A stretch of DNA of 64,000 nt from a virus (IMGVR_UViG_3300008267_000014:1-64000); one strand, 5' to 3'; positions 10,163 through 63,657 are shown, numbered from the stretch's first letter. Translations and numbers: made by a program. The notes: generated by a model not told the origin, from the sequence alone.

Positions 10163-10164
10163 TT

Positions 10165-10491
10165 ATGGCTGGTAGACAATATTATAATCGATATGGTAAT
10201 TTTTTAATTAATGGTCAACAAACTGTTGTTCCTTATGTTGAATTAACGAGTAAAAGCACTGATAAACGGTATATTTACAAAATTGGTCAATCGAGACTTG
10301 ATAAAATATCACAACAAAATTATGGGACACCATATTTTGGGTGGTTAATATTATTGGCTAATCCTAAATTTGGGGGACAAGAATGGAATATAACTGATGG
10401 TTCTATATTGACAATTCCATATCCTTTAGTAGCTTCTTTACAAGATTATAACAATCAATTAGAAACACATTTCTTTTATTATGGTAGATAA
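10165..10491 (+). CDS. LysM-like baseplate protein (T4 gp53 / P2 gpX-like)
   Basis: SRLDKISQQNYGTPYFGWLILLANP..GSILTIP motif. Confidence 0.7.
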   Translation: MAGRQYYNRYGNFLINGQQTVVPYVELTSKSTDKRYIYKIGQSRLDKISQQNYGTPYFGWLILLANPKFGGQEWNITDGSILTIPYPLVASLQDYNNQLETHFFYYGR

Positions 10492-46073: not shown

Positions 46074-46106
46074 ATAATAAAATTAAAAAAAATATAATAA
46101 AAATTT

Positions 46107-49100
46107 ATGATAACATTAAGTGAAGTACCTTCAGGTGGGAGTTTTACAGGTGGAACTGTAAATGGTGCAACTTATTTTACAGGTGGATTAACAGCTAATA
46201 CATTTAGTGCTACTACATATCTTAATTTACCTGAAAACCCATATTGGACTTCAGGGTCAACTTGGAACGGAACAAATTATCCGATTAAAGCGAATAATGA
46301 TAGTGGGTTAGATGCTACAGGTGATTATTCAGTTGCTGAAGGTTATAATACAACTGCGGTTGGATTTGGTAGTCATGTCGAAGGTTCTAGCTCGACATCT
46401 ATAGGTGTTATTTCACACGCTGAAGGTTATTTTACTATATCATGTGGTGGTTATAGTCATGCTGAAGGTTGTTTAACTATTTCTTGTGGTTATACTAGTC
46501 ATTCTGAGGGTAGTGAAACCACCGCAATAGGGTTTGCAAGTCATGCTGAAGGTGAAAAGACTAAATCTTGTGGAATATCTAGTCATGCTGAAGGATATTT
46601 AACCATATCGTGTGGTGATAGAAGTCATACTGAAGGTCTTTGTACAACATCAATTGGTGATAATAGTCATGCTGAAGGTGAATGTACAATAACTAGTGGT
46701 AATAGTAGTCATGCTGAAGGTTTTATTACGACCGCTATTGGGTGTTATAGTCACAGTGAAGGTGAATGTACCATGGCTTGTGGTTGTGCTAGTCACGTTG
46801 AAGGTCAATTTAGTAGTGCGATTGGTGATTTTTCACACGCGGAAGGTTGGGTTAGTAAAGCCTATGGGTGGGCTAGTCACACACAAAATGATAGTACAGT
46901 TGCTTGTGGTGATGCAAGTCACGCCGAAGGTAGTGAAACTACCGCTATCGGTAATCTAAGTCACGCTGAAGGGGGTGATACTACGGCTATTGGTGATAAT
47001 AGTCACGTAGAAGGTCAATTCACAACGGGTTGTGGGTACGCAAGTCATGCTGAAGGATTTGGGTCTTTAGCTTATGGATGTGCAAGTCATGCCGAAGGTC
47101 AATTAACAATAGCTACGGGACAAATGTCACATGCTGAAGGATATTCAACAAAAACTGGAGGTGAAATATTAGAACCGTTTAATAATAACGGAATATTTTA
47201 TTCGGCATCAACTAACCCGTTATTATATGTATTATATGATTTTTCATCGTTGATTAGTGGTACTAGAATTCAAGTAAGTACTATTAATAGTGCATTTGAA
47301 TCTTTCGTAGCTTCAACTTATTATGATAGTATATCAGGTATGACTATCATTACGTTAACTTCTGACGAATACGGGTTAGACATATCTTACACAACTGAAG
47401 GTATATCCATATTTAATTTTCAAAACACAATACAAGGAGATGCTTCACATGCTGAAGGTCAAATGTCGGTCGCATATGGTGATGCTTCACATGCTGAAGG
47501 TAGAAATACAATAGCTTATGGTGATTATTCACATTCTGAAGGTATAACTACAACATCTTGTGGTTGTTACTCACATTCTGAAGGAGTGTTAACTACTTCG
47601 TTAGGAGTTGCTTCACACGCAGAAGGTAGTCGTACAACCGCTTGTAATGTACATACTCATTCGGAAGGTGCTTGTACTATTGCCGATGGTGACGGCTCAC
47701 ACTCTGAGGGTATTTATAGTACCTCCGTGGGTCATTATTCTCACGTTGAAGGTGTTGGTACAACATCGATAGGTTATGGTTCGCATGCTGAAGGTGGTTT
47801 TTATGATAGTATTGAAGATACATTTTATGAGGGTGGAACGTCAATAGGACGTGGTTCACACGCTGAAGGTTATAAAACAACATCATTTAGTACTGTTTCA
47901 CATTCGGAAGGTACTCAAACAAGGTCAGGTATTAACGCTTACGGGATATCCGCAGAAACTGTAACAAACGGATTTTTGATTTTAAATACTATATATGACG
48001 TTAGCACTGAGTTTTCGATAGGGGATACTGTTATTTTAGAAGATGTGCCGTTATTAAACATATTATCAACTGTAAGTAGTGTATTTTTTAATGGAACTTT
48101 AACAACGATACAATTATCCAATTCAGGTTTAACTGGTAATTATAAAAAAATTGCCAATATAGATAATGTTAATCCTAATTACGCTGATTCATCGATAGGT
48201 TATGGTTCGCATGCTGAGGGTGCTGGTACAAAATCAATTGCTGGATATAGTCATGTTGAAGGGGTTAATACTAAAACTTATGGTGGTGGTTCACATGCTG
48301 AAGGTAGAGATACAACAACTATCGGAAGAGCATCACATTCGGAAGGTGATTGTACTGTTGCGACAGGTTACAGTTCTCACGCTGAAGGTGGTTGTAACAA
48401 TTCATATGGGACTTTCTCACACGCTGAAGGTAGATGTACCATGGCTTGTAATTGGATGTCACATTCGGAAGGTGATTGTACAACATCTTTAGGTTATGGT
48501 TCACATTCAGAAGGTTATTCTACTACATCAGGAGCTAAAGGATTTAGTATATATAATAATACGGTTTCAAATGGGTTATTACAATTAGAAAATAATTATG
48601 GTGATGTTACATCGGAATTTAATCCTAATAATACGGTAACATTATTTGATGGGACGTATTTTAATCCTGTTTTCACTATTTCTGCGGTTACATATGATAT
48701 ATTATTATCCGCAACAACAATTCAATTATATCAAAGTTGGGTCACAAGTACATATTTACAAATTGTTAATTTAAATAATTTAGATAGTGTGTATGCGGAC
48801 GCACCTGTTGGTGATTTTTCACATTCTGAAGGGTATTGTACTAAAGCTATTGGCTACCAATCCGAATCGCAAGGTCTTTGTACTATATCATTTGGTAATA
48901 CGTCACATTCTGAAGGTCAGAAAACAACTGCAATTGGTGGTGCTAGTCATTCTGAAGGTAGTGATACAACGGCATTTGGGTGTTCTAGTCATGCTGAAGG
49001 TCTTTGTACTATGGCTTGTGGTAATTATAGTCATTCTGAAGGTAGTGAAACAATTGCTTACTGTGATAATAGTCACGCTGGTGGAGTTTCGTCAATCGCT

Positions 49101-49520
49101 AGTGGTGATACATCATTTATTCATTCAACTTGTTCGGTAGTAACAGGTGACAGAAGTGCTGTTATTGGTGGTCAAAATATTACGGGAACAACAAATGATA
49201 CTGTTTATGTACCTAATTTGAATATTGGTATTATTGGGTCGGGTACAAGTGTTAGTATTTTAGGTGTTGATGGTAGTGGTTATGTTGTTAGTGGTAATAG
49301 TCTAACAAGTAAGTATATTACAAATTTAACATTCACTGGTAGTGAAACTAAAACTATTACCCATAACCTTAATACAAAATTTGTTCATTGTTCAGTTTGG
49401 GACACTAGTACTAATGAATTAATAACGGCACAAGTTGTGAGGGTTACCGGTAGTGAAACTACTTCATTATACATTACTATTGCAACTGCGGGTAATTATG
49501 ATATATTAATAACAGGATAA
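46107..49520 (+). CDS. YadA-like (SHAEG 14-aa repeat) Cys-rich fibre/adhesin 1
   Basis: Dozens of SHAEGxxTxAxGxx repeats, three inserted domains, C-terminal THNL domain. Confidence 0.75.
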   Translation: MITLSEVPSGGSFTGGTVNGATYFTGGLTANTFSATTYLNLPENPYWTSGSTWNGTNYPIKANNDSGLDATGDYSVAEGYNTTAVGFGSHVEGSSSTSIGVISHAEGYFTISCGGYSHAEGCLTISCGYTSHSEGSETTAIGFASHAEGEKTKSCGISSHAEGYLTISCGDRSHTEGLCTTSIGDNSHAEGECTITSGNSSHAEGFITTAIGCYSHSEGECTMACGCASHVEGQFSSAIGDFSHAEGWVSKAYGWASHTQNDSTVACGDASHAEGSETTAIGNLSHAEGGDTTAIGDNSHVEGQFTTGCGYASHAEGFGSLAYGCASHAEGQLTIATGQMSHAEGYSTKTGGEILEPFNNNGIFYSASTNPLLYVLYDFSSLISGTRIQVSTINSAFESFVASTYYDSISGMTIITLTSDEYGLDISYTTEGISIFNFQNTIQGDASHAEGQMSVAYGDASHAEGRNTIAYGDYSHSEGITTTSCGCYSHSEGVLTTSLGVASHAEGSRTTACNVHTHSEGACTIADGDGSHSEGIYSTSVGHYSHVEGVGTTSIGYGSHAEGGFYDSIEDTFYEGGTSIGRGSHAEGYKTTSFSTVSHSEGTQTRSGINAYGISAETVTNGFLILNTIYDVSTEFSIGDTVILEDVPLLNILSTVSSVFFNGTLTTIQLSNSGLTGNYKKIANIDNVNPNYADSSIGYGSHAEGAGTKSIAGYSHVEGVNTKTYGGGSHAEGRDTTTIGRASHSEGDCTVATGYSSHAEGGCNNSYGTFSHAEGRCTMACNWMSHSEGDCTTSLGYGSHSEGYSTTSGAKGFSIYNNTVSNGLLQLENNYGDVTSEFNPNNTVTLFDGTYFNPVFTISAVTYDILLSATTIQLYQSWVTSTYLQIVNLNNLDSVYADAPVGDFSHSEGYCTKAIGYQSESQGLCTISFGNTSHSEGQKTTAIGGASHSEGSDTTAFGCSSHAEGLCTMACGNYSHSEGSETIAYCDNSHAGGVSSIASGDTSFIHSTCSVVTGDRSAVIGGQNITGTTNDTVYVPNLNIGIIGSGTSVSILGVDGSGYVVSGNSLTSKYITNLTFTGSETKTITHNLNTKFVHCSVWDTSTNELITAQVVRVTGSETTSLYITIATAGNYDILITG
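46131..46346 (+). repeat. 216-bp direct repeat, copy 1
   Basis: 20 mismatches in 216 nt versus 55699-55914 by manual codon alignment. Confidence 0.85.
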
Positions 49521-49536
49521 TTTTAAAAATTAAAAT

Positions 49537-51780
49537 ATGGCAAATAGAATAGAAACAGGATTAAATATAAAAGGATTAAGTGGTGATACTAACGCATTAC
49601 ACGTAACAGGTAACTCATTTATAAATGGTGATGTTAACATCACAGGTAATGTTAATGTTATTGGTACAGCAACAACTTTAAATACTGAAACCGTTCAAAC
49701 AAGAGATAATAGAATACTGTTGAATTATAGTGGTACTACATTAAGTGCGATTGGTGGTGGTATTGAAGTTTTAAGTGGTAAAACTAATGGTACTAATATT
49801 AGTTTAACTACGGATAGTAATGGTGATTGGAATTCAAATACTGGTCTAAATATTAGTGGTAGGACTTCTGATAATACAACATATGGTTTAAGAGTACAAA
49901 ATAACGGTGGTACAGATAATTTAGTTATTAGAAATGATGGTAATGTTGGTATTGGGACAAGTAGTCCAACAAGAATTTTGGATAGTAGAGGTACTTTTAA
50001 TCTACAACCAAGTACAAACACTTTTTTAAGATTTGATTCTTACATGATAGAAGCCCAAGTTGGTAGTTCAAGTAACGCCTTAGCCATTAATATAGATAAT
50101 TTTGGTGGTTCTCAATTAAGAGGTAGTGGTTCTTCTGGGTTAGTAAGTGGTTCAAATAGTTTCGGTATAACTAGTGGTGGGTTAGGTTGGTTTAGGATAG
50201 ACGATAAACTTATTTTTTCATATAGTGATAATTACGTTATAGGATGGTGGGATTTACAAAATAGTAGATTTAGAATAGGTGGTGGGGGATATTCACCAAT
50301 TTATTCTTCAACCACAGAAACATTTGAAGTTATTGGTACTTCAAAAATAAGTGGTAATGTCGGTATAGGTATAACTGGTTCAACAGATGTTAATACTAAA
50401 CTTAAAATCGTTGGTACAGATTCATCATCAAATTACGGATTAAAAGTCCAAAATAGTGGTGGTACAGATAATTTAGTAGTTAGAAATGATGGTAACGTTG
50501 GTATCGGAACAAGTAGTCCAATATCTAAATTACATATTAAAACAACACAAAATCTTACTTCTAATATTGATTACTTTTTACTAGGAAGTGATATATCTAA
50601 TTATTTCATTAGAGCTCACACAAATGGTTATGGTAGTTATGAGACAAGTAGTTTAAAGTTCGCAACTTATGGTGGTGATATTAATTTTACACTAGGTTCT
50701 AATGCTCAAAATAATTTTAATGTTAAACATTCAATATTTAATAATGAATTTAATGTTGGTGGTGGTAGTTTTTATAGTAAATTTTATCATGGTGGTTTTG
50801 CACAAAGTGATGGTATTATCGATGAGTCTTATTTTACTGGTTCAATTATTCCGTCAAGAAAAACGACAAAAACCATTATATCTAATAATGAAGGTGGTAC
50901 TCTTGCTGATACGTATGAAGGATTAAGAATTAGGAAAGGTAATTGGGTTAATACATCTGGTACTACATATTACCCATTAATCGCTTTAGATGGTAATGTT
51001 GGTATCGGAACGGCAACACCAAATGCAAAACTAACCATAGAAAGTCAAAGTGGTATTACTTATCCACTTAGTGTTTCTAGTGTAAATGTAGGTTTAACTA
51101 GAAGTAGATTCCTAAATGCTGGTGGTAATCAAACTGACATACAGATAGGTAATAATAATGGTGGTAATTCATTATACTTAGGTTTAACAAATACTTCAAT
51201 ACCTTATTTAGATAATAGAACTAGTAATAATTTCGAATATCAAATAGTTGGTATTCCAAAAGTTACAATAGACACATCTGGTAATGTTGGTATAGGGACA
51301 AGTACCCCTGGATTTAAACTTCAAGTTATTAACGATAATAATACTGTTGGGATAGAAACAACTGTTGATGGTTCTTCTACACCATTACGACTAACATCTA
51401 CAGATGGAGGGTTTTCAGATAATCAAGAAATAAGAATTGATACTTACCAATCATCATCAATAGTTACAAGATTTGCCACTTACTACGATAGTTCAACAAC
51501 ATGGGGATTTAAATTTTATGGGACAAATAGTTTCTTAAATTCTCAACCAATAATGACATTAAATGGTAATGGTAACGTTGGTATTGGAACAACATCACCA
51601 ACGGCTAAATTAGATATATCCGGTAATACCGGTTATAATCAATTAAGGTTAAGGACATCTTATACACCAACAAGTTCTAGTGATACTAGCGGTAATGTCG
51701 GTGATATAGCTTGGGATGACAATTATTTTTATTGGAAAACATCATCACAATGGTTAAGAGTTAGTGGTCAAACGTTTTAA
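49537..51780 (+). CDS. Tail fibre-like protein with GNVGIGT repeats
   Basis: Six GNVGIG motifs; GNVNVIGTATTLNTETVQTRD fibre motif; C-terminal GDIAWDDNYFYWK domain. Confidence 0.7.
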   Translation: MANRIETGLNIKGLSGDTNALHVTGNSFINGDVNITGNVNVIGTATTLNTETVQTRDNRILLNYSGTTLSAIGGGIEVLSGKTNGTNISLTTDSNGDWNSNTGLNISGRTSDNTTYGLRVQNNGGTDNLVIRNDGNVGIGTSSPTRILDSRGTFNLQPSTNTFLRFDSYMIEAQVGSSSNALAINIDNFGGSQLRGSGSSGLVSGSNSFGITSGGLGWFRIDDKLIFSYSDNYVIGWWDLQNSRFRIGGGGYSPIYSSTTETFEVIGTSKISGNVGIGITGSTDVNTKLKIVGTDSSSNYGLKVQNSGGTDNLVVRNDGNVGIGTSSPISKLHIKTTQNLTSNIDYFLLGSDISNYFIRAHTNGYGSYETSSLKFATYGGDINFTLGSNAQNNFNVKHSIFNNEFNVGGGSFYSKFYHGGFAQSDGIIDESYFTGSIIPSRKTTKTIISNNEGGTLADTYEGLRIRKGNWVNTSGTTYYPLIALDGNVGIGTATPNAKLTIESQSGITYPLSVSSVNVGLTRSRFLNAGGNQTDIQIGNNNGGNSLYLGLTNTSIPYLDNRTSNNFEYQIVGIPKVTIDTSGNVGIGTSTPGFKLQVINDNNTVGIETTVDGSSTPLRLTSTDGGFSDNQEIRIDTYQSSSIVTRFATYYDSSTTWGFKFYGTNSFLNSQPIMTLNGNGNVGIGTTSPTAKLDISGNTGYNQLRLRTSYTPTSSSDTSGNVGDIAWDDNYFYWKTSSQWLRVSGQTF

Positions 51781-51795
51781 AAAAAATATTATATA

Positions 51796-51833
51796 TAAAA
51801 AGTCAGATTAAAGAAATCTGACTTTTATTTTTT
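51796..51833. terminator. Bidirectional terminator between convergent genes
   Basis: AAAAGTCAGATT / AATCTGACTTTT stem flanked by A and T tracts. Confidence 0.75.
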
Positions 51834-52488
51834 TAGGGTCTATATATTGTTCACAATATTCTAATAGGTTTTTAGGTGTATTGATTTCATCATTTTTTAA
51901 TGTATGAAATTCCCCTATTAAGTATTCTATTTTATTAAATAATTCAGGATTTATATTTTTAAGAATATCATATTCCGCCCCCTCACAGTCTATTTTTAAT
52001 AGTTTAATTTTATTAACCTTTTCAGTTTTTAAAATGTCATCTATAACTACATTAATGGGTAATGATTTAATAATATTTTTATAGTATAAACCAACGGGTT
52101 CTTCATATACAAAAGATGAACCACCTGTATTACCAACTGGCATATTCATTATAACATCTCTACCATCAGAAGTGATTGCGTTATTAAAAATCCTTACATT
52201 ATTTATATTATTTAATTGAATGTTTTTACTTAAACAATGAAATGTATTATATGTTGGCTCAAATGAAAATATTTTACAATTAGGATTAACTTTAGATAAA
52301 TAAGTTGAAACAACACCTACGTGAGCCCCAATGTCAATAATAACATCATCATCATTTATTTTTAATTCATTTAGATGGTATTCTTCTTTCAGTTCTTCAT
52401 AAATCCAATATACTGAATTTGATTTTTTATGGTCGTAAAATTTAATACGTTCATCTAGTATTCTTATTTCTTTAAGTGAGTTTATCAT
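51808..52488 (-). CDS. FkbM-family SAM-dependent methyltransferase
   Basis: IIDIGAHVG, FSFEP, KLLKIDCEGAEYDIL, GEFH. Confidence 0.9.
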   Translation of the reverse strand: MINSLKEIRILDERIKFYDHKKSNSVYWIYEELKEEYHLNELKINDDDVIIDIGAHVGVVSTYLSKVNPNCKIFSFEPTYNTFHCLSKNIQLNNINNVRIFNNAITSDGRDVIMNMPVGNTGGSSFVYEEPVGLYYKNIIKSLPINVVIDDILKTEKVNKIKLLKIDCEGAEYDILKNINPELFNKIEYLIGEFHTLKNDEINTPKNLLEYCEQYIDPKKIKVRFL

Positions 52489-53393
52489 AATTCAAATTCA
52501 ATATCGTAAGCTTTATCTTTTTCAAGAGATTTTATAATATCATTAACATTAAATAATGTTTTGGTATCAAATGGAAATTCGGTAGGTTTACCTGTAATAT
52601 CGTAAGGTTGTAAATAACTTTTTTGAGTTGTATGATGAACTATTTTAGCATCTGTCACAATATTATCATGTAAATCATAACCAAATACTTTTGGATTATT
52701 CACGACCCAACAAACTGTTGATGGTATATTAAGTGCCGTTGATATATGTTGACAAACTGAGTCAATGAATAAACGTTTATCTGAATACATTATCATAATA
52801 GCGATTTCTCTCATTGGTTTAGTTAAACCTTCAGCACCGTTAATTAAAATTTGTTTTTCACCTTTAATTTGGAAGGTATGATAACCTAAATTATTATAAT
52901 GTCTAACAATTTTCTCACAGTCTATTACAGGTAAATCTCTAGCCCAAGAATAACCTTCTTCATAAGAACCACCGAATGGTTGTATTAAAAAAATTGGTTT
53001 ATTTATTTTTGAAATAATTGTATTTCTAACATATGAAATTTCTCTTTGTGAGAAAAATAATTCAGGTTGTTCACCGTTATATGGTATATTAAATAAATCA
53101 CACCAAATTTTAATTAAATGTGCTCTTTCGTATAAATAATCTTCAGTATCATAAGGATTTAAAATCATTATTTTACTGTTTTTATTTTTAACATAATCAT
53201 CGTAGAAATATTTTAATTCACCGAATTTAAATATTTTATATACGTTAGGATTATTATACCATAAATCATCCCAAGCTGTAACAATGATAATTTTACTTTG
53301 AGGGTATTGTTTTTTTAATGCTTTAATAACGGCGGTTGCCATAACATTTTTACCCGCACCCCCTTTTATTTCGAAAATAATATATTCGTGCAT
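52485..53393 (-). CDS. GT-B glycosyltransferase (GT9 / heptosyltransferase-like)
   Basis: GGAGKNVMATAVIKALKKQYP..NNPNV, IDSVCQHISTALNIPSTVCW; ATGA overlap with the methyltransferase. Confidence 0.75.
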   Translation of the reverse strand: MHEYIIFEIKGGAGKNVMATAVIKALKKQYPQSKIIIVTAWDDLWYNNPNVYKIFKFGELKYFYDDYVKNKNSKIMILNPYDTEDYLYERAHLIKIWCDLFNIPYNGEQPELFFSQREISYVRNTIISKINKPIFLIQPFGGSYEEGYSWARDLPVIDCEKIVRHYNNLGYHTFQIKGEKQILINGAEGLTKPMREIAIMIMYSDKRLFIDSVCQHISTALNIPSTVCWVVNNPKVFGYDLHDNIVTDAKIVHHTTQKSYLQPYDITGKPTEFPFDTKTLFNVNDIIKSLEKDKAYDIEFEL

Positions 53394-53481
53394 ATGAATA
53401 GTTTTAAATAAAAAAATATAATATTAAACGAAAAACTAAACTGTGCGGATTGATATTTATATTATAAAAAAATAATATATT

Positions 53482-56400
53482 ATGACTGATTTTAGTTCTC
53501 TTGGGGGTGTTGGTATCATTGGGTTTATTTCACCTAAAGGTACAAATGATACTTATGCGGTTATTGACCCTACTTATGGTGTCGATGGTTTACGAAATGT
53601 TAACACAACTTCTGATTTAGATTTAATAACAACCGAAAGAAGACGTGCGGGTATGATTGTCGGTGTCTCTGGTGGTACGACATATTATAAATTAAACCCT
53701 GAACCTTGGAACTATAGCTCAACCGATTGGTCAATCTTTTATACAGGGGAAAATGCATTAATTGGTGTTAGTCTTGTTAATGGGGATTTAATTTTTACAA
53801 ACGCAACCGGAGGGACGATTACGATTTCGGGTATTAGTTCTAATGAAATTTATTGGACTTCAGGCTCAACTGGAAATTTCTCAATTAAGGCTAATAATGA
53901 TAGTGGGTTAGACGCTATAGGTGATTATTCATTAGCCGAAGGGTATGATACAAAAGCTATTGGTGATTATTCATTTGCCGGTGGTTCAGGAACTACAGCA
54001 ACGACAATATCGAGTGTTGCATTAGGTGTTAATAGTATTTCAAATGCTACCAATGTTTTAGAATTAGATACACCGATATCAATTTATTATACTAATTTAA
54101 CGACTGAAGATTATTGTAATGATTATGGACTTTATATGATAGTAATACCAAATACTAATCCGTATATTGATTTTTATGATTACATTTTTAATAGACAATC
54201 GACATTTATATTAAGTGGTAGTAGTGGTACTAAAATAGTGAACAATACTACAATTAGTGTTGATGATGTTTATGTGAGTTATGATACATTTTTATTTTTT
54301 TATGATTGTGAAAATGGTACTGATTATACAATAATTAGTGGTAATACTTTCATTGATACAACGGTTAGTGGTAGTTCAGCATTTGCGTTTGGGACTAATT
54401 TAAAATCTTGTGGTTCTAATAGTTTTGCTGAAGGTAGATGTAATAGTGCTATTGGTTCATATAGTCATTCTGAAGGATATAAGACAACTAGCTTAGGTCT
54501 TGGTAGTCATTCTGAAGGTAGTTGTAATATATCTTGTGGACGTTATACTCACTCTGAAGGTGGTTTAACTACTGCTATAGGTAGTTATAGTCATGCTGAA
54601 GGATATAATACTTCTACTATTGGTGATTATACCCATGCTGAAGGATATAATAGTAAAGCGATTGGGTTATATAGTCATGCTGAAGGATATAATACTATCG
54701 CTTGTGGTCAATATAGTCATGCTGAAGGATATAATACTATCGCTTGTGGTCAATATAGTCATGCGGAAGGGTATAATACTATTACTTATGGTCAATATAG
54801 TCATGCTGAAGGGAATTGTTCAAAAGCTTGCGGTTTTGGGTCACATGCTGAAGGTGGTGGTGTTTATTGTAGTGGTAACTATCTATCAGGAGGTGTTGCG
54901 ATTGGTCCTGGTAGTCATGCTGAAGGTATATGTACCCTTGCATGTGGTGATGGTAGCCATGCTGAAGGGTATGGTGCTGGTGGTGTTGGTATTTGTGGTA
55001 TATGTTATAGAACAATTGCATCAGGTTGTGGGTCACATGCCGAAGGGTTAGTAACAACCTCTATTGGTAGTGGGTCACATGCGGAAGGTGGGTTTGCACG
55101 ATGTATTACCAATTGTGTTGGACAAAGTTATACCGTTATTTATCTTGGTGGTACGGCAATTGGTGGTGGTAGTCATGCTGAGGGAGGTAATACTAGAACA
55201 TCAGGAATTACTAGTCATGCAGAAGGATACGGAAGTACATCATTTGGGTTTGGAGGACATTCAGAAGGAATTCATTCGACCTCAATCGGAAATGGGTCAC
55301 ATGCTGAAGGTGGGTTTTATATCCCTACAGCGTTTACAGGTGATATTTGTTATATTAGTGGGGGTGTTGCTATAGGGGATAGTAGTCATGCGGAAGGTAT
55401 TGATACTAAATCTTGTGGTGTTGCAAGTCATGCTGAAGGTAGTGGTACTACCGCTTATGGTTTTGTTAGTCATTCGGGTGGTATTAATACAATTGCTTCT
55501 GGGAATACATCATTCATCCATTCAACCAATTCTGTTGTAATTGGTGATAGAAGTGTTGTGTTAGGAGGTCAAAATATAACAGGTGATACATCAGACACTG
55601 TTTATGTGCCTAAATTAAATATCGGTACATTAGGTACAGGGTCTAGTATTAATAATTTAGGTATCGATGTTAATGGTTTTATTGTGACTGGAACAACTTC
55701 AGGTGGAAGTTTTACAGGTGGAACTGTAAATGGTGATACTAATTTTACAGGTGGATTATCAGCTAATACATTTAGTGCTAGCACATATTTTAATTTACCT
55801 GAAAATCCATATTGGACATCAGGTTCAACTTGGAACGGTGCAAATTATCCGATTAAAGCTAATAATGATAGTGGTTTAGATGCAACTGGTAGTTATTCAG
55901 TTGCAGAAGGTTATGGAACATGTACTATTACGTTAGCGATTAGTAGTCATGCTGAGGGACATCGTACCACAACATTTGCATGTGGTAGTCATTCCGAAGG
56001 TAGTTGTACTACGGCTTACGGTTGTTTTAGTCATAGTGAAGGTTTTTGTACTAAATCTTGTGGATGTAATAGTCATGCTGAAGGTTGTTTTACAACATCA
56101 ATAGGTAATAATAGTCATTCTGAAGGTTCGTGTAACATATCTTGTAATAATTCAAGTCACGCTGAAGGTTTTTGTACCACATCTTTTTGTTCTTATAGTC
56201 ATACTGAAGGAACTGATACTAAAACTTATGGTCAATATAGTCATGCTGAAGGACAATCGACAACAACTAGTGGTCAAAGTAGTCATGCTGAAGGTAATTT
56301 AACGACATCAATTGGTAGATATAGTCATGCTGAAGGATATTCCACTAATTCTTGTGGTTGTTATAGTCATGCTGAAGGTGAATGTTCCGATACTTGTGGT

Positions 56401-57030
56401 AATTATAGTCATGCTGAAGGAACTATAACCGTTTCATCGGGATGTGGTAGTCATGCTGAAGGTATTTGTACCACATCTATAGGTAAACACAGTCATTCTG
56501 AGGGTAATAATACTAAATCATGCGGATGTGGTAGCCATGCTGAAGGTTATTATACAACTTCAATTGGTTTTTATAGTCATGCCGAAGGTTGTGGAACTAC
56601 CTCTTTTACTGATTATAGTCACGCTGAAGGTATTTGTACGGTATCATTATCATTAGGTAGTCACTCAGAAGGGTTTTGTACTACTGCTGGAAATTGTTTT
56701 TCACATTCGGAAGGAATTTGTACTTTGACAATAGGATGTGCTAGTCATTCAGGTGGTATTAATACGATAGCTTCAGGTGACACGTCATTTATCCACTCAA
56801 CAAATTCAGTTATAACCGGTAATAGAAGTGTTATTTTAGGAGGTCAAAATATAACAGGTAGTACTGATGATACAGTATATGTCCCTGATTTAGTAATTAG
56901 AAAATCTCAAATAGTTCCTACAGGTAGTACCCATAATATTGGTGAAAATGGGTCTGTTACTTGGGATAATGATAATTTCTATTGGAAGGCTAATGGTTTA
57001 TGGTTAAAAATTAGTGGAATAACTTTTTAA
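53482..57030 (+). CDS. YadA-like (SHAEG repeat) Cys-rich fibre/adhesin 2
   Basis: N-terminal DTYAVID..GLRNV..ERRRAGMIV domain, two SHAEG blocks, C-terminal GSVTWDNDNFYWK domain. Confidence 0.75.
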   Translation: MTDFSSLGGVGIIGFISPKGTNDTYAVIDPTYGVDGLRNVNTTSDLDLITTERRRAGMIVGVSGGTTYYKLNPEPWNYSSTDWSIFYTGENALIGVSLVNGDLIFTNATGGTITISGISSNEIYWTSGSTGNFSIKANNDSGLDAIGDYSLAEGYDTKAIGDYSFAGGSGTTATTISSVALGVNSISNATNVLELDTPISIYYTNLTTEDYCNDYGLYMIVIPNTNPYIDFYDYIFNRQSTFILSGSSGTKIVNNTTISVDDVYVSYDTFLFFYDCENGTDYTIISGNTFIDTTVSGSSAFAFGTNLKSCGSNSFAEGRCNSAIGSYSHSEGYKTTSLGLGSHSEGSCNISCGRYTHSEGGLTTAIGSYSHAEGYNTSTIGDYTHAEGYNSKAIGLYSHAEGYNTIACGQYSHAEGYNTIACGQYSHAEGYNTITYGQYSHAEGNCSKACGFGSHAEGGGVYCSGNYLSGGVAIGPGSHAEGICTLACGDGSHAEGYGAGGVGICGICYRTIASGCGSHAEGLVTTSIGSGSHAEGGFARCITNCVGQSYTVIYLGGTAIGGGSHAEGGNTRTSGITSHAEGYGSTSFGFGGHSEGIHSTSIGNGSHAEGGFYIPTAFTGDICYISGGVAIGDSSHAEGIDTKSCGVASHAEGSGTTAYGFVSHSGGINTIASGNTSFIHSTNSVVIGDRSVVLGGQNITGDTSDTVYVPKLNIGTLGTGSSINNLGIDVNGFIVTGTTSGGSFTGGTVNGDTNFTGGLSANTFSASTYFNLPENPYWTSGSTWNGANYPIKANNDSGLDATGSYSVAEGYGTCTITLAISSHAEGHRTTTFACGSHSEGSCTTAYGCFSHSEGFCTKSCGCNSHAEGCFTTSIGNNSHSEGSCNISCNNSSHAEGFCTTSFCSYSHTEGTDTKTYGQYSHAEGQSTTTSGQSSHAEGNLTTSIGRYSHAEGYSTNSCGCYSHAEGECSDTCGNYSHAEGTITVSSGCGSHAEGICTTSIGKHSHSEGNNTKSCGCGSHAEGYYTTSIGFYSHAEGCGTTSFTDYSHAEGICTVSLSLGSHSEGFCTTAGNCFSHSEGICTLTIGCASHSGGINTIASGDTSFIHSTNSVITGNRSVILGGQNITGSTDDTVYVPDLVIRKSQIVPTGSTHNIGENGSVTWDNDNFYWKANGLWLKISGITF
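54669..54764 (+). repeat. Exact 42-bp tandem repeat (about 2.3 copies)
   Basis: ATATAGTCATGCTGAAGGATATAATACTATCGCTTGTGGTCA repeated. Confidence 0.9.
55699..55914 (+). repeat. 216-bp direct repeat, copy 2
   Basis: About 91% identical to 46131-46346. Confidence 0.85.
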
Positions 57031-57075
57031 ATAAAATAAAAAAATAATAAATTAAAAAGTATTTATTAAATAATT

Positions 57076-59031
57076 ATGACATCTATCCAAATTACCGAAA
57101 TATCAGGATTAACATATCCTTATGATATCTATGTTTGTGATGTTTTTGGTAATCAATGTTTATTAGTGGCCACTATTAATAGTGATGTACCACCAGTAAA
57201 TACTTTAGTATTACCACCACAATTTAATACCGCTCCTGCAGTTGGTGTTAAAATAGTTTCACATGATTGTGTTAAATTTAACATAGTTTATTGTTATTTG
57301 GTTTATACTAGAACGCCTACGCCAACACCTACAGTTACACCAACGATTACACCAACGAACACTCTAACACCTACTAACACTGAAACACCTACTCAAACTC
57401 CTACAAATACCGTTACACCAACTAATACTGAAACACCTACTGTTACGCCAACTCCAACTAACACTGAAACGCCTACTCAGACCCCAACTAATACGATTAC
57501 ACCGACTAATACTGTCACACCTACTAATACTGAAACGCCGACGCAAACTCCGACTAATACACTAACACCTACAAATACCGTAACTCCCACAAACACTATT
57601 ACACCTACAAATACTGAAACACCAACGGTTACTCCGACACCAACAAATACTATCACGCCAACTAATACAATTACACCAACTGTTACACAAACACCAACAA
57701 ATACTCTTACGCCTACTAACACTGAAACCCCTACAGTTACCCCAACTAATACTCTTACGCCAACAAATACCGAAACTCCTACTCAAACACCTACAAACAC
57801 CATTACGCCAACAAATACTGAAACGCCGACTCAAACTCCTACAAATACTATAACACCTACTAATACTGAAACGCCGACGCAAACTCCGACTAATACGGTC
57901 ACACCGACTAATACTGAAACACCTACACAAACCCCAACTAATACGGTTACTCCGACAAATACTATAACACCAACTAATACTGAAACTCCGACTCAAACAC
58001 CTACTAATACGGCAACACCTACTGTTACACAAACACCTACTAATACTGAAACTCCAACACAAACACCTACCAATACTATTACTCCGACAAATACCGAAAC
58101 TCCAACACAAACTCCGACAAATACGGTAACCCCAACAAATACTGAAACTCCAACACAAACACCTACCAATACTGTTACACCAACTAACACCGAAACGCCT
58201 ACTCAGACCCCTACCAATACTTTAACACCGACTAATACCGAGACACCAACACAAACTCCTACTAATACAATTACACCTACCAACACCGAAACGCCTACAC
58301 AAACACCAACTAATACAGTCACACCAACTAATACGGAGACCCCAACTCAAACCCCTACTAATACGATTACACCTACTAATACTGAAACACCTACTCAAAC
58401 TCCAACCAATACGATAACACCAACTAACACCGAAACGCCTACTCAGACCCCGACCAATACTCAAACACCGACTAATACGATTACACCTACAAATACTGAA
58501 ACCCCTACCGTTACTCCAACTAATACTGTTACGCCGACCAATACAGAAACTCCAACACAGACCCCTACTAATACCCAAACTCCAACTAACACAATCACAC
58601 CAACAAATACTGAAACGCCTACTCAGACCCCAACTAACACAGTTACACCTACTAATACTTTAACCCCAACTAACACTCAAACTCCTACTCAAACGCCTAC
58701 AAATACTATAACACCTACTAACACTGAAACCCCTACACAGACACCTACCAACACGATAACACCTACTAATACTGAAACACCAACGCAAACACCGACTAAT
58801 ACCGAAACACCAACGCAAACGCCAACAAATACGATTACACCTACGAATAGTGAGACACCTACACAAACGCCAACTAATACGGCAACGCCAACATATACCC
58901 CATCAATAACACCATCGTATACACCATCGGCAACACCAACTTTAACACCATCACCAATAGTGGGTGATTTCTTATTACTTGAAACCGGTGATTATTTATT
59001 ATTAGAAACAGGTGATAAGATTATATTATAA
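57076..59031 (+). CDS. Mucin-like Thr/Pro-repeat protein
   Basis: Cys-containing N-terminal domain, ~550 aa of [15 protein letters not shown][IVL] repeats, C-terminal LLLETGD repeat. Confidence 0.8.
57313..58956 (+). repeat. Coding low-complexity repeat (12/18-bp degenerate units)
   Basis: ACN-CCN-ACN-AAY-ACN pattern with synonymous variation. Confidence 0.95.
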
Positions 59032-59067
59032 AAAAAAATATCGGTCATTTCTAACCGATATTTTTTT
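59032..59067. terminator. Bidirectional terminator at the strand switch
   Basis: AAAAAAATATCGGT / ACCGATATTTTTTT. Confidence 0.8.
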
Positions 59068-59086
59068 ATTAAAGCTTAAAGTGTAC

Positions 59087-59686
59087 TTACCAAATACCTT
59101 GTTGTTTCATATAACCTAAAACACAACAATAAGCATCTGATTGGTCAAAATTTTCTTTTTTAAGTGTATTATTTTTAGTGTATAACCATTGTATTTGTGG
59201 TTCTTTTTTTGCGACTTTTTCCCAAATTATCATTTTTTTATCGATGTCTTTAGGTAATCCTCCGAATAACACATGTTTACCTTTATCATTAACTTGGACT
59301 AATTCGGGAAATGCATATTTTCTTGAATTGTAAGTTGAAATGAATTTAGGTACAATTCCTAAAGTATCATAAATTTCTTTACAAAGAAATGAGTTAAATC
59401 TTAATAATGTTTGAACTGTGTTAATGTTATTTGAATTTAACAAAGGTTCTTCAATTATTACGTTAACGATACCCATACCTTGATATTGGATTAATTTTTT
59501 CTTAAAAATTTCAGCCTTTAAAAGTAATTCGGTGATTTTACAATCTTGTTTAGGTTTAGGTTGTGGTGAAATATGACATAATTCTAAAAGTTCTTTATCG
59601 ATAATATCAAATAATGCCCAACCAATTGTTCTGGTTGAGATGTCTAATCCTAATACTTTTGGTTTTTCTTTTAATGGTTTTTTCAT
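59087..59686 (-). CDS. RuvC-like Holliday junction resolvase
   Basis: VLGLDISTRTIGWA, VIIEEP, FDQSDA acidic motifs. Confidence 0.75.
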   Translation of the reverse strand: MKKPLKEKPKVLGLDISTRTIGWALFDIIDKELLELCHISPQPKPKQDCKITELLLKAEIFKKKLIQYQGMGIVNVIIEEPLLNSNNINTVQTLLRFNSFLCKEIYDTLGIVPKFISTYNSRKYAFPELVQVNDKGKHVLFGGLPKDIDKKMIIWEKVAKKEPQIQWLYTKNNTLKKENFDQSDAYCCVLGYMKQQGIW

Positions 59687-59689
59687 AAA

Positions 59690-62080
59690 TTAAAAATCGA
59701 ATTTTACGATAAATTGCTGAATACCTTGTCTAAGAGTTGGAGATTGCAGCTTAGATATAATCATAAGATTTTTATTTGAGTCGTAAAGACTAATTTCTGT
59801 AATATATGATTTTGTACCTTTAGTCCAAGTAGGATTAGATGAAGTTAAAAATTCAGATTTTGATAAGTTTAATTTATATTTCATTTCATAAATTGTTGCT
59901 TGTATATCAGTTTCTAAATTACCATAGAAATAATATTCATCTCCAAAATTAAGAGTTTGACCTGTATCACCAATCGTTGATAATGGTATATAATCATTTA
60001 AATCATAAAAATCGGCGGCATCATAAGCGTCTTTTGTAATAACAAATGTTGTACCTGTTAATGTATTTTGTGTTAGATAACCATTAACTGTTGTCGCACT
60101 TACTTGGTCTGTAACGTCAATAATTCTCCATTCATCAGATAGCGGTCTTGTATCACCTGATACTTTTTGACAGATAAGTTCAATTTTTTCGGCAAAAAAA
60201 CCTTCTTTAAATGTATTATCGTAATCAGTCAAACAAGGGAAATTACCCCCAAAACTAACACCTACATTATCTGAATTCGAAGTACTACAATCATTAGGTC
60301 CAAAAATATTAACATAATAATTACAATGTATTGAATTGGTAAAAGCGCTTGTATTTGTGAATCTGTACGTTACGTACATGTTTTCACTACCGCCTGATAA
60401 TACACCTATATTACTACCATTACTTGAACCACATGTGTTAGGTGATACTAAATTTAGTTTAGGGGCTGGTAATGTCCAATTACGATTAGATTTATATGAC
60501 ATTGCGGCAACGATTTCTTCATCGTCTATAATAATGATATGGTCGTCAGGAAAAACTTTACCAATTCTACTTGGTAATCCATTAGACACTACATGTGTAT
60601 CCCATAGATTAAAATATCTTAAACCAGGTGTGTTCATGTCCTCATTTTTAGTTGATTTTAAATATTCGACTTGAAATAAATCAACATCATCAAAATTAGG
60701 TGGGTCAACCCAAAAAGTTTCACCATAACAACATTCAGGGTTTTTATGCCACATTAACCAAGGAATGTGTAGTTTGAAATTTCTAGCTTCACCTGTTGAA
60801 CTTGTTGGTGATGATGGGTCAAATGGTTCTAATGCGAATTTTTCACCATAGAATGAATCTATAGTTTGATTCGTATAATGTATCACAGCAATTGCTTTTT
60901 GTTTTTCAGGTGTTACTGTAACTTTTTGATTAAATGAGTCATAAAAATAAACAGAATCAGTATCTGTTTGACCACTAGAATTCATGTAACCAAAATATTC
61001 TTTAGCACCAATATAATTTATTGAACCAAAACCTGTGTAATCAACATTAATTGATGATACGATACCTGCAGGACTTTCAGACCAAGGAATATTCATATTC
61101 CAAATCTTAACGTTAAACTCGTCTTGATTACATACCGATTCAAAATTAATAACATCATCACTCCAATGATTAAGAGGTGTGACGCTATCATATAAATCAG
61201 TCATAGTATTAGGATATACAATTACCCTAGCATAACAACTTGTGAATGATATTGATGAATAATCAGGGACTGGTCTATCTAATGTATAACTATCATTACA
61301 TATATCAACAATTCGATATGTTAACATAGGGTAACAAGAACTCATTGTCATTGAACATTCTGTTGAAACAACAGGTGTTGGGTTAGGACAATATGTTGCC
61401 GAAGGGGTTGGTGTTGGTGTTGGTGATGAACAAGGTGTACCACTAACAGGTGTTGCTGATGGTGTGGGTGTCGGTGTTGAATATTGAGAACTTGTTGGTG
61501 TAGGTGTTGGTAAATTAATACAACTACAATTATTATCGCCTAATTTATCATAGTAAATTGTGATAAAATCGCCAATTGATGGTGAACTATAATTGGTTGG
61601 ATTACAATTTAAATTGATTACTTTTATTGTTGTACCACCTGTTAATGTTGACATGTCAATAACGTAATTAGAGTTAACAACATAATCATTTCCGGTTAGA
61701 GTACTCCAATTAGTTGGTAATGATGTAGTATCACCGGTAAAGAAACCTCTCATAGCCGCTGTATTATAAATTGGGCTAACTACTGAATCCATATATGGAA
61801 TACCGTAAGTGTTTCCAACAGTACCATCAACATAATATGGGTATTTTACGTTACCTTTATTAGATTGTGGTACACCACTACTATTTTGAGAATTAAATGA
61901 TGGTGTTAATACCATACTGTTAGATTGTTGGTAGGTTGAGGGTAAATTATTATAATTTATCTCACTATCCCCAATTTGAAAGTAACTAATATTAAAAGTA
62001 CCTTGAGATAATTTTTGTCTTGCGGTATCGGTTAATTTTGTATTTACTAACGCTGATGTATTTTTTAATATAAATGACAT
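59690..62080 (-). CDS. Baseplate / tail-fibre-attachment structural protein
   Basis: N-terminal KLTDTARQKL..FQIGDSE and C-terminal YITEISLYDSNKNLMIISKL resemble tail-collar-fibre motifs; internal PTPT tract. Confidence 0.55.
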   Translation of the reverse strand: MSFILKNTSALVNTKLTDTARQKLSQGTFNISYFQIGDSEINYNNLPSTYQQSNSMVLTPSFNSQNSSGVPQSNKGNVKYPYYVDGTVGNTYGIPYMDSVVSPIYNTAAMRGFFTGDTTSLPTNWSTLTGNDYVVNSNYVIDMSTLTGGTTIKVINLNCNPTNYSSPSIGDFITIYYDKLGDNNCSCINLPTPTPTSSQYSTPTPTPSATPVSGTPCSSPTPTPTPSATYCPNPTPVVSTECSMTMSSCYPMLTYRIVDICNDSYTLDRPVPDYSSISFTSCYARVIVYPNTMTDLYDSVTPLNHWSDDVINFESVCNQDEFNVKIWNMNIPWSESPAGIVSSINVDYTGFGSINYIGAKEYFGYMNSSGQTDTDSVYFYDSFNQKVTVTPEKQKAIAVIHYTNQTIDSFYGEKFALEPFDPSSPTSSTGEARNFKLHIPWLMWHKNPECCYGETFWVDPPNFDDVDLFQVEYLKSTKNEDMNTPGLRYFNLWDTHVVSNGLPSRIGKVFPDDHIIIIDDEEIVAAMSYKSNRNWTLPAPKLNLVSPNTCGSSNGSNIGVLSGGSENMYVTYRFTNTSAFTNSIHCNYYVNIFGPNDCSTSNSDNVGVSFGGNFPCLTDYDNTFKEGFFAEKIELICQKVSGDTRPLSDEWRIIDVTDQVSATTVNGYLTQNTLTGTTFVITKDAYDAADFYDLNDYIPLSTIGDTGQTLNFGDEYYFYGNLETDIQATIYEMKYKLNLSKSEFLTSSNPTWTKGTKSYITEISLYDSNKNLMIISKLQSPTLRQGIQQFIVKFDF

Positions 62081-62123
62081 TTTATTATTTTAAATTTTAT
62101 TTATTCATGTTCTGATTTAGTAT

Positions 62124-63266
62124 TTAACTTCTATTGTAAAATGGGTCAGAAATGACTACTGTACAACAATTACATCCTGTGATACTGGCATTACTTAAAG
62201 ATATATTAGAACTGTCAAATGTTGATGAACAACAATCTAAATATGAACCGGCATAATTTTCTAAATCAAATCCAAATGGTATTGGAGTCCATTCATCAGG
62301 TGGTAACCAAGCACCAGGAGGTGTTGGAGTTGGAGTCGGTGTTTGAGTAGGAGTGAGTGTTGGTGTGTTATTACAAGTTTTATTAAGGGTACTAACAGTT
62401 TGAATTGTGAAAGTATCTGTTGATGTTATTGTTATAGTATTCCTATTGTGTGAAACGTTTCTAGTATATGTTAAATAAGATTGACACCCTATTTGAGCAT
62501 TTGGTTGAGTTGATTCCACCGTATTATCAATATATGAAATTGGATTACCATTTTTCAATACTTGTGTTGTGAATGTGTAGTTAGCTGAATTAGAATAAGG
62601 TGTTCGTATAAATTGACTATATAAACTCATATCAAATGTAATTGTTACACCGTTTGGTAAAGGTGGTGATACTGATAACGAATATGTGTCTTGAACAGTT
62701 GTTGTGGTTGTTGTTGAAACTAACGTTGCTGAACCAAGTAACGACGCTGTTAGAGTATATTGTGTTGGTGAAGTTTGTTGGGCTAAAGTAACTGTTGAAG
62801 ATACTACAGTACCTACATTATCAATAACTTTAACTGAATATTGACCACCACACAAACCATTAGCTATTGCTGATGTACCATATGTTAATCCATTATTAAA
62901 TGAATAACCGTAAGGTGGTACACCGCCTGTTGCTTGAATGGTAATTGTACCGTCACAAGTACAGGTTGGATTACTAAGACTAGTGGTAAATTCTAATAGG
63001 TCTAATGGCGGACAAACACCTTGGTTTGCGTCAACACTATAACTATCGCCAATTACCGTCCAATTATTATTTATTGGTGGATAAGCTGGATTAGTATTAA
63101 TTACTTGAGTTGAACCCAAACTTGACCCTGACATTCTCCAAGCATTTATTGATGTATCCCAAATTATTTTAAGTGTACTATCATCTGACAACCATGATTG
63201 ATAACCATTATAAGTTCCATTTGGGTTGAAATGTGCGTTAGTTTTATATTGACCTTCGAAAAACAT
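62124..63266 (-). CDS. SprB-repeat / PT-repeat structural protein (possibly the C-terminal half of a split gene)
   Basis: DGTITIQATGGVPPYGYS..GLCGGQYSVKVID; PTPTPP tract. Confidence 0.6.
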   Translation of the reverse strand: MFFEGQYKTNAHFNPNGTYNGYQSWLSDDSTLKIIWDTSINAWRMSGSSLGSTQVINTNPAYPPINNNWTVIGDSYSVDANQGVCPPLDLLEFTTSLSNPTCTCDGTITIQATGGVPPYGYSFNNGLTYGTSAIANGLCGGQYSVKVIDNVGTVVSSTVTLAQQTSPTQYTLTASLLGSATLVSTTTTTTVQDTYSLSVSPPLPNGVTITFDMSLYSQFIRTPYSNSANYTFTTQVLKNGNPISYIDNTVESTQPNAQIGCQSYLTYTRNVSHNRNTITITSTDTFTIQTVSTLNKTCNNTPTLTPTQTPTPTPTPPGAWLPPDEWTPIPFGFDLENYAGSYLDCCSSTFDSSNISLSNASITGCNCCTVVISDPFYNRS

Positions 63267-63270
63267 ATTA

Positions 63271-63657
63271 TTAATTAATTATTGTAAAATTTAAGCAAAA
63301 ATCATATAACTCAGGTACAGGTGTTGGTGTTGGTGTAGGTGATGGTGATGGAGTTGTCGTTGCTGATAAAACACAAACTTGAGTTAATTGAAAATCGTTA
63401 TAGTAATCTTTTATTGTTGCGGTATAAGTCCCAATACTTAGATTAGTTATTGTATCACCTATACCACCATTATCCCATTGAATGTCATAAGGATATGTAC
63501 CACCAGTTATGATTAGACTTGCGATACCATCTGTTGACGTAGTACTTGATGGGTTAGTTGAATTACAAATAACTGACATTGGAAATATAGTTATCACACC
63601 ACATTCATTTCTTTCTGTTGGGGTGTTTGTTGAAAATATATTTCGTTTTTTAACCAT
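63271..63657 (-). CDS. SprB-repeat / PT-repeat protein (possibly the N-terminal half of a split gene)
   Basis: DGIASLIITGGTYPYDIQW..NLSIGTYTATIKD; PSPSPTPTP. Confidence 0.6.
   Translation of the reverse strand: MVKKRNIFSTNTPTERNECGVITIFPMSVICNSTNPSSTTSTDGIASLIITGGTYPYDIQWDNGGIGDTITNLSIGTYTATIKDYYNDFQLTQVCVLSATTTPSPSPTPTPTPVPELYDFCLNFTIIN

Follow-up and report, generated by a model that had tools for sequence, protein, structure and literature searches.

A coupled glycosyltransferase and methyltransferase amid tail-fibre genes

The virus record IMGVR_UViG_3300008267_000014 carries, on the minus strand and in the middle of a long run of fibre genes, a two-gene cassette encoding a glycosyltransferase (GT) and an FkbM-family methyltransferase. 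We analysed the first 64 kb (hereafter the window) of this 87.8-kb IMG/VR record, whose CheckV completeness of ~30% implies a genome of roughly 300 kb. GC content is 25-38% across the sequence, genes for replication and an extended module of baseplate and fibre genes are found in the window, and the cassette sequence or near-identical DNA is present in freshwater, pond and lake metagenomes; the source is an uncultured freshwater jumbo phage of ~300 kb, known from freshwater metagenomes alone. All open reading frames (ORFs) named in an earlier note on this DNA were confirmed at the coordinates given there, and we refer to ORFs by their first coordinate. The cassette and its borders comprise:

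52485-53393, minus strand: 302-residue GT-B glycosyltransferase with a predicted GT9 (heptosyltransferase-like) fold, first gene of the cassette (AlphaFold2 model and fold search)
51808-52488, minus strand: 226-residue FkbM-family S-adenosylmethionine-dependent methyltransferase (TIGR01444, PF05050; ATGA overlap with the GT gene)
51798-51826: two-way hairpin resembling an intrinsic terminator (12-bp stem, 5-nt loop, A-run before, T-run after)
53394-53481: 88-bp divergent intergenic region between the GT gene and fibre gene 53482, defined by ORF coordinates

The earlier note had described a translationally coupled pair with a terminator of its own, lying on the opposite strand among fibre genes, and this description holds in each part. 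The TGA stop of the GT gene and the ATG of the FkbM gene overlap as ATGA (minus-strand junction TTATGATAA); the hairpin, placed between the end of a fibre gene (51780) and the 3' end of the FkbM gene, is the sole terminator-like site within 51500-53700; and fibre genes 46107 (YadA_head, 59.6 bits) and 49537 (PHROG tail fibre) lie alongside. Promoter-like matches around the cassette do not exceed shuffle expectation, so divergent promoters in the 88-bp intergenic region are putative.

The FkbM assignment was likewise borne out, by matches above cut-off to TIGR01444 (104.6 bits, cut-off 37.7) and PF05050 (55.7 bits, cut-off 22.7); the match to PF05575, the O-antigen methylase family of Vibrio cholerae RfbT, is marginal (28.0 bits, cut-off 27.9). 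Close homologues share 60-89% identity with the methyltransferase and 71-82% with the GT. For a GT homologue (79% identity) and an FkbM homologue (70%), the reported longest contig is of identical length, 33,626 bp, and a pond-metagenome contig with 14 differences crosses the GT-FkbM junction; the co-residence of the two homologues is read from that matching figure together with the short pond contig. From its gene arrangement, the cassette is predicted to be a coupled sugar-transfer and methylation pair of accessory nature.

A divergent glycosyltransferase with a predicted GT9 fold

A structural model of the GT built from a 40-sequence family alignment, which is also the source of the residues that we call family-invariant, reached a predicted local distance difference test score (pLDDT) of 93.3. 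Fold searches returned GT9 chains at Z 18-24 and the top non-GT9 GT-B chain at 11.3. The VIA Z values were 23.8 for a Veillonella GT9 enzyme (3tov), 21.4 for WaaF (1psw), 20.3 for TibC and 20.1 for WaaC (2h1h), and superposition on 3tov, 1psw and 2h1h gave root-mean-square deviations of 3.3-3.4 across 249-275 residues, at a sequence identity to WaaC, WaaF and the Veillonella enzyme of just 9-17%. The invariant residues D211, S212, Q215 and H216 (DSxxQH) align to the VDTGLSH donor-site motif of WaaC (D261, H266) and to NDSGLMH of WaaF; the hhalign comparisons with the single WaaC and WaaF sequences were weak (0.9% and 8% probability) and served only to place the motif.

Profile searches give a different picture. 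The GT has no match to PF01075, the Pfam GT9 family, even at E <=10, nor did a six-frame search of the record yield one; TIGR02201 gave a 19.6-bit N-terminal match and nothing more, TIGR04414 (Aah/TibC; equivalog cut-off 200 bits) gave no match, and a profile search of PDB sequences with the GT found nothing. Its PHROG family, phrog_8954, is listed as unknown. The loop after strand 1 carries an invariant GGxGK (G11, G12, G14, K15) and no acidic residue. Since the GT lacks a PF01075 match and has an unusual N-terminal loop, yet shows a GT9 fold, we regard it as a predicted divergent GT9-fold enzyme rather than a clean PF01075 member; the label 'GT9-like', which the earlier note had given it, is right for the fold and finds no counterpart in Pfam.

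The family is restricted to phage-like DNA and accompanies fibre genes

The protein collection holds more than 377 homologues of the GT, and relatives are encoded on 383 IMG/VR contigs, many of them 100-460 kb long; the locus counts that follow refer to the 80 best viral loci. Members of a fibre-like protein cluster lie at most four genes from the GT in 74 of the 80 loci, and 213 of 215 such genes are on the GT strand; among ten sampled members, seven carry PHROGs names of tail fibre, tail spike or virion structural protein. Other recurrent neighbours are a PF13469 sulfotransferase (44 loci), an adenosine phosphosulfate (APS)-kinase-like protein (29), a small nucleotidyltransferase-like protein (20) and a DUF2061 protein. 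The partner enzyme differs among phages, being mostly a sulfotransferase with sulfate-activation genes and, in this phage, FkbM. A C-terminal motif, '...INTDYG...W..LAFIN', sought as a fibre feature that tracks the GT, was found in 16 of the 80 loci only.

Across hundreds of phages from many habitats, family members retain 40-50% identity. When 185,579 prokaryote species were scanned, each represented by a single genome, no more than 24 contigs with the family came to light, all in metagenome-assembled genomes (MAGs) with mutually inconsistent taxon labels and none in an isolate; a sulfotransferase or fibre-like gene stands beside the GT in 17 of the 24. The labels of these contigs (L251-L274) include Saccharibacteria, Paceibacteria, Taylorbacteria, Iainarchaeum and Bacteroidia, among others; some of the contigs are 284-549 kb long, and many have two tandem GT copies. 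They are probably jumbo-phage contigs misplaced in bins, and the searches taken together indicate that the family is confined to phage-like DNA, that is, to viral contigs and phage-like MAG contigs.

A distant homologue in the cyanophages P-SSM2 and P-SSM5 (24.5% identity in P-SSM5) adjoins ADP-heptose synthesis genes; in the P-SSM5 region concerned (L001, 5989-11504) the homologue is annotated as hypothetical, and a carbamoyltransferase gene is also adjacent. Among 79 other viral loci retrieved with FkbM, 31 combine FkbM and GT9-type modules, in the form of an FkbM-containing fusion, GT2 genes and a short ORF matching the C-terminal half of PF01075. The cassette of these 31 loci (within L177-L228) is carried by T4-like phages: in L191 (Gp23 capsid, 326 bits) the cassette at 7845-12490 lies between the capsid gene and ribonucleotide reductase and consists of a GT2 gene, a 661-residue GT2-methyltransferase-FkbM fusion, a GT2-like gene, a methyltransferase and a 150-residue ORF matching the PF01075 C-terminal half. 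A cassette of this type may be a capsid-adjacent glycosylation system.

The cassette within its phage lineage

The genes on either side of the cassette are:

46107-49520, plus strand: 1137-residue YadA-head-like beta-roll fibre with 41 SH[ASTV]EG units (PF05658, 59.6 bits; 42-nt repeat families)
49537-51780, plus strand: 747-residue tail-fibre protein with GNVGIGT repeats, convergent with the cassette (PHROG tail-fibre families 9942, 18345 and 3269)
53482-57030, plus strand: 1182-residue YadA-like fibre with 36 SH[ASTV]EG units, divergent from the GT gene (phrog_25468, E 1e-80; YadA_head, 22.2 bits)
57076-59031, plus strand: 651-residue modular protein with a 75-residue Cys-containing N-domain, a 548-residue Thr/Pro/Asn spacer and a C-terminal LLLETGD present twice (composition)
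59087-59686, minus strand: 199-residue RuvC-like resolvase, outside the glyco-cassette (phrog_159, phrog_827)
59690-62080, minus strand: 796-residue lineage-core protein with a variable Pro/Thr loop at residues ~190-240 (409 IMG/VR contigs, 56-71% identity)
62124-63266, minus strand: 380-residue protein with an SprB-like repeat (PF13573, 27.7 bits, below the 28-bit cut-off) and a Pro/Thr linker (residues 305-319)
63271-63657, minus strand: 128-residue protein with a weak SprB-like match and a Pro/Thr/Ser tract (residues 98-116; domain and tract search)

We defined the lineage of the phage by the relatives of ORF 59690, which lie on 409 IMG/VR contigs, and compared 80 loci and 30 whole contigs. 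In the relatives (L087-L166), the homologue of fibre gene 41820, then 63271, 62124, 59690 and the RuvC gene share one strand, with the homologue of the Thr/Pro gene (57076) on the opposite strand. Relative to that order, the window carries everything from ORF 63271 through the Thr/Pro gene in inverted orientation, with ~13 kb of fibre genes plus the cassette interposed. Gene content varies between the window and the relatives across the span 44112-57030, where four fibre genes and the cassette are located, and by this comparison the cassette appears to belong to a hypervariable tail-fibre region.

Within 10 kb of the ORF 59690 homologue, neither a GT nor an FkbM gene was found in any of the 80 lineage loci. 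A true GT homologue is nonetheless present in four of the 30 whole contigs (G028, G024, G025 and G005), where in every case it sits beside a sulfotransferase and sulfate-activation genes and adjoins very large fibre-like genes. A TIGR04414 domain, the Aah/TibC type, occurs in seven of the 30 contigs; it lies within a few kilobases of the GT in G028 (282.6 bits), G024 (287.9) and G025 (201.4), above the 200-bit cut-off, and in a weaker version of 115 bits, under the cut-off, in G005. In G028, G024 and G025 the domain is joined to a GT4 domain, and the G024 protein includes FkbM as well (TIGR01444, 59.7 bits), giving multi-domain glyco-enzymes of 767-1447 residues:

L246, 2334-6677 (G028): GT4 plus Aah/TibC-type domain
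L249, 3383-6292 (G024): GT4 plus Aah/TibC-type domain, with FkbM
L248, 12508-14811 (G025): GT4 plus Aah/TibC-type domain

The 1447-residue protein of G028 has ~900 extra N-terminal residues, which start with what looks by eye like an FkbM motif. The same cassette also holds a free-standing FkbM gene and, at L246 9313-10011 between the DUF2061 gene and the GT, a gene resembling group I intron endonucleases (TIGR01453, E 8e-11).

Pro/Thr tracts are distributed independently of the cassette

The earlier note had proposed that the cassette glycosylates Thr/Pro tracts in nearby proteins, and the tracts themselves are as it described them. The ~550-residue Thr/Pro repeat of protein 57076 corresponds to residues 78-625, with 49% Thr, 19% Pro, 12% Asn and 99 TPT triplets (the same Thr and Pro percentages have been given for the whole 651-residue protein), and the underlying DNA consists of degenerate tandem repeats that match one another at 64-79%. 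The tracts reported in 59690, 62124 and 63271 were recovered, together with two further tracts in ORF 65935-69384 beyond the window; besides these and the Thr/Pro protein, no other ORF of the record has one.

These tracts belong to the lineage and not to the enzymes. Under a definition of at least nine P, T or S in ten residues, including at least three P, a Pro/Thr/Ser tract is present in 79 of the 80 lineage loci, as against none of the 80 GT-family loci and none of the 79 loci of FkbM relatives. The complete 322-kb genome G014 encodes a 1356-residue Thr/Pro-rich protein but no copy of the GT and no enzyme of TibC type; in G028, also a complete genome, the GT is present, and its homologue of the Thr/Pro protein is just 101 residues long and tract-less. 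An independent distribution across relatives is the outcome that the earlier note had named beforehand as refuting its proposal, and it is what we found. Comparative support for tract glycosylation is thereby removed; glycosylation of the tracts in this one phage is still conceivable. The broader suggestion of a phage-made glycan on the virion fares better, a virion role being plausible from the confinement of the family to phage-like DNA, the fibre neighbours in 74 of 80 loci and the Aah/TibC-type domains of sister phages; the part that falls is the choice of Thr/Pro tracts as acceptors.

Alignment of homologues places the tract of ORF 59690 in a variable-length loop bounded by conserved blocks with flanking Cys residues. 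Of 80 homologues, 76 have the tract, and in two (L123 and L141) the alignment shows no loop; a second insertion, of poly-Thr, is found in many relatives and is lacking in the window protein. Homologues of ORF 65935 have tracts in 59 of 62 cases. We infer that the Pro/Thr tracts are lineage-wide flexible linkers, independent of the cassette.

In relatives, the N-domain of the Thr/Pro protein is mostly a free-standing protein of 72-101 residues, often in two copies; long Thr/Pro extensions (41-57% T+P) occur in a few N-domain relatives only, in proteins of 719-1750 residues. The domain (57076-57300 in the window) is a multi-copy small-protein family in the lineage. Many copies end in KQFQ..F.FMD..Y.FQ, which also terminates fibre 41820 (43980-44054), and others end in a repeated LLL(E/Q)xG(D), like the Thr/Pro protein; to judge from these sequences, the terminal motifs may be docking peptides.

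Fibre genes and other neighbours

A 218-nt direct repeat with 91% identity links the two YadA-like fibre genes (46129-46346 and 55697-55914): the start of fibre gene 46107 is duplicated in the second half of fibre gene 53482, with a partial third copy at 53874-53963 (81%). The two repeat copies bracket most of the fibre and enzyme island, and recombination between them could delete or reshuffle it. Cys residues number 31 in fibre 46107 and 46 in fibre 53482, with none in fibre 49537. The invariant Ser of each SH[ASTV]EG unit is, from the repeat sequence, a conceivable acceptor ladder in both YadA-like fibres.

Fibre 41820 (41820-44054) has four SprB repeats (70.3 bits) and a Por_Secre_tail sorting-domain match (28.1 bits, cut-off 27), the latter without a separate stretch; these domain matches give a weak hint of a Bacteroidota host.

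The RuvC-like resolvase gene adjoins the ORF 59690 homologue in relatives, in 79 of 80 related loci. The model of the ORF 59690 protein is poor (pLDDT 51.6, with the Pro/Thr loop of low confidence) and the protein atlas returns unnamed viral clusters alone; from synteny alone, we infer a structural role. ORF 65935-69384 (G000; also L275 2936-6385, minus strand) encodes 1149 residues in which the two Pro/Thr linkers are accompanied by four DUF285 stretches (PF03382, 296.8 bits), and homologues occur in 61 of 80 related loci.

What the cassette may modify

Our preferred, and still tentative, reading is that the cassette glycosylates and methylates tail fibres as an accessory function. We favour it because the GT family is restricted to phage-like DNA, the cassette occupies the fibre module, sulfate and methyl modules are swapped around the GT, and sister phages have Aah/TibC-type domains. 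The GT would act in the cytoplasm of the infected cell, transferring a sugar, possibly heptose from a nucleotide-heptose, to a neighbouring beta-helical fibre protein or to a glycan already on the fibre; FkbM would then O-methylate the transferred sugar, and the capped fibre glycan could change adsorption, stability or recognition. A wider generalization, that jumbo phages practise modular fibre glycosylation in which the GT9-like family and Aah/TibC-type enzymes build glycans on beta-helical fibres and exchangeable modules finish them (in most phages a sulfotransferase plus sulfate activation encoded by the phage, in this one FkbM), is possible but on the doubtful side. Several observations pull against fibre modification. 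The acceptor is assigned entirely by synteny and analogy. The 87.8-kb record, which covers ~30% of the genome, showed neither an initiating enzyme of TibC type nor sugar-nucleotide genes that could be recognised. The GT has GGAGKN, with no acidic residue, in the loop that seems to correspond to the site of the catalytic Asp13 of WaaC, so its chemistry may differ from that of classical GT9 enzymes. No single fibre type tracks the GT, and SHAEG repeats are absent in the GT-positive G028 and G025. In L083, a contig from a single metagenome scan that encodes the closest relative (82% identity) at its end, with one flank visible, that sole visible side has a DNA polymerase and not a fibre gene. The strand of the cassette is opposite to that of the fibre genes in this phage and the same in other phages, and the cassette may therefore be timed differently from the fibres. 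Cyanophage homologues, finally, lie in clusters usually read as host lipopolysaccharide (LPS) genes.

That last point leads to the host envelope as the target, which we consider rather unlikely, if credible. The GT would add a sugar to the LPS core or another surface glycan at the cytoplasmic face of the membrane and FkbM would cap it by methylation, so that superinfection is blocked or progeny are kept off debris, and the position among fibre genes would reflect an accessory-gene hotspot only. Its credibility comes from the LPS-acting solved relatives (WaaC and WaaF, the nearest, are LPS heptosyltransferases), from the moron-like antisense placement with a terminator of its own and from the ADP-heptose neighbours in cyanophages, to which the marginal RfbT match of FkbM may be added. 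Yet conservation at 40-50% identity across phages of many habitats, and in no isolate genome, is easier to reconcile with an acceptor that the phage itself encodes than with LPS cores that vary by host; in other phages GT and fibre genes share a strand and are interleaved, and sister cassettes hold domains of the protein-directed Aah/TibC type. Improbable, in our estimate, is O-glycosylation and methylation of the Thr/Pro tracts of 57076, 59690, 62124 and 63271 into mucin-like, bottle-brush appendages. The tracts are genuine, extreme and adjacent to the cassette, a cytoplasmic GT-B enzyme would suit glycosylation of a phage protein, and mycobacteriophages are known to glycosylate their virions with enzymes of their own, according to the account in PMC12619734; against this stand the independent distributions (tracts in 79 of 80 lineage loci with no such enzymes nearby, and none in the 80 GT or 79 FkbM loci), a tract without a GT9-type enzyme in G014 and a GT without a Thr/Pro extension in G028, and the occurrence of tracts at variable loop or linker sites, in unequal lengths, with loss in some homologues. 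Modification of DNA or a small molecule, in which the GT would act on modified phage bases or a metabolite and FkbM would methylate the product, seems very improbable: some phage DNA glycosyltransferases are of GT-B type and among the Foldseek hits there is, at low rank, a glycosyltransferase from a phage (9iqz), but that match is weak (TM 0.35, E 1.7e-3) next to GT9 Z values of at least 20, the gene lies in the fibre region and not in a replication or nucleotide-metabolism region, and the sulfotransferases and Aah/TibC-type domains of sister cassettes do not fit DNA chemistry.

If the cassette does modify tail fibres, sequence would not be the only means by which large aquatic phages tune their receptor-binding structures; glycans would do so too, with sulfate and methyl caps exchanged between phages, and modular fibre glycans would add a chemical layer of host-range and anti-decoy variation on top of fibre sequence variation. 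Sequence-based prediction of host range, the stability of fibres in water and the question why enzyme genes gather in fibre regions would all be touched by this. The analysis also assigns a predicted fold and a testable role to a family (phrog_8954) that lies outside Pfam coverage and occurs on at least 383 viral contigs, and it cautions that a nearby glycosyltransferase is by itself no ground for calling the Pro/Thr tracts of this lineage glycosylation sites.

Comparison with known systems

Phage virion glycosylation and protein heptosylation are each already known; in the literature on phage fibre, heptosyltransferase and sulfotransferase cassettes, we did not find this family or arrangement described. 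In mycobacteriophages, phage glycosyltransferases decorate the C-termini of capsid and tail-tube subunits (Freeman et al. 2023, as reported in PMC12619734). The likeness lies in phage glycosyltransferases encoded beside structural genes and thought to decorate virion proteins. The acceptors there are capsid and tail-tube C-termini and the candidates here are fibres; enzyme family, methyl or sulfate tailoring and host group also differ, and the present case is made from genes alone. Cyanophage clusters of the type that includes the GT homologue have been read as altering the host surface (PMC12801897), and for the GT described here, ADP-heptose as donor is hinted at by context only, through analogy with the ADP-heptose neighbours of the P-SSM5 homologue.

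WaaC, WaaF and the Veillonella GT9 enzyme (CAZy GT9, PF01075) are the best structural matches (Z 19.5-23.8) and have in common with the GT a C-terminal D-S/T-x-x-x-H motif. They differ from it in their PF01075 membership and low identity, apparently in having a GD motif with Asp13 in place of GGAGKN, and in that the GT family is confined to phage-like DNA and found among fibre genes. RfbT-type FkbM O-methyltransferases belong to the same family as the methyltransferase of the cassette, which has a glycosyltransferase for a partner, an arrangement also seen in glycan loci; here, however, FkbM is phage-encoded and coupled to a GT9-fold enzyme, and sister phages have a sulfotransferase and sulfate activation in its place.

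In bacteria, Aah and TibC are encoded beside a repetitive beta-helical adhesin, which they O-glycosylate on Ser. The 302-residue GT aligns to TibC 93-399 only and has no equivalent of TibC 1-92, the iron-binding extension that forms the dodecamer, and the GT lacks the TIGR04414 match as the record lacks a TibC-like gene. The GT is predicted to share with Aah/TibC (TIGR04414; PDB 4rap and 4rb4) the GT9-type GT-B fold (Z 20.3, 263 residues aligned), and the family in lineage relatives stands beside TIGR04414 domains that score above cut-off. Aah and TibC are cytoplasmic enzymes with their repetitive substrate encoded next door, and the GT is likewise flanked by beta-roll and beta-helix fibres, YadA-like on one side and built of GNVGIGT repeats on the other.

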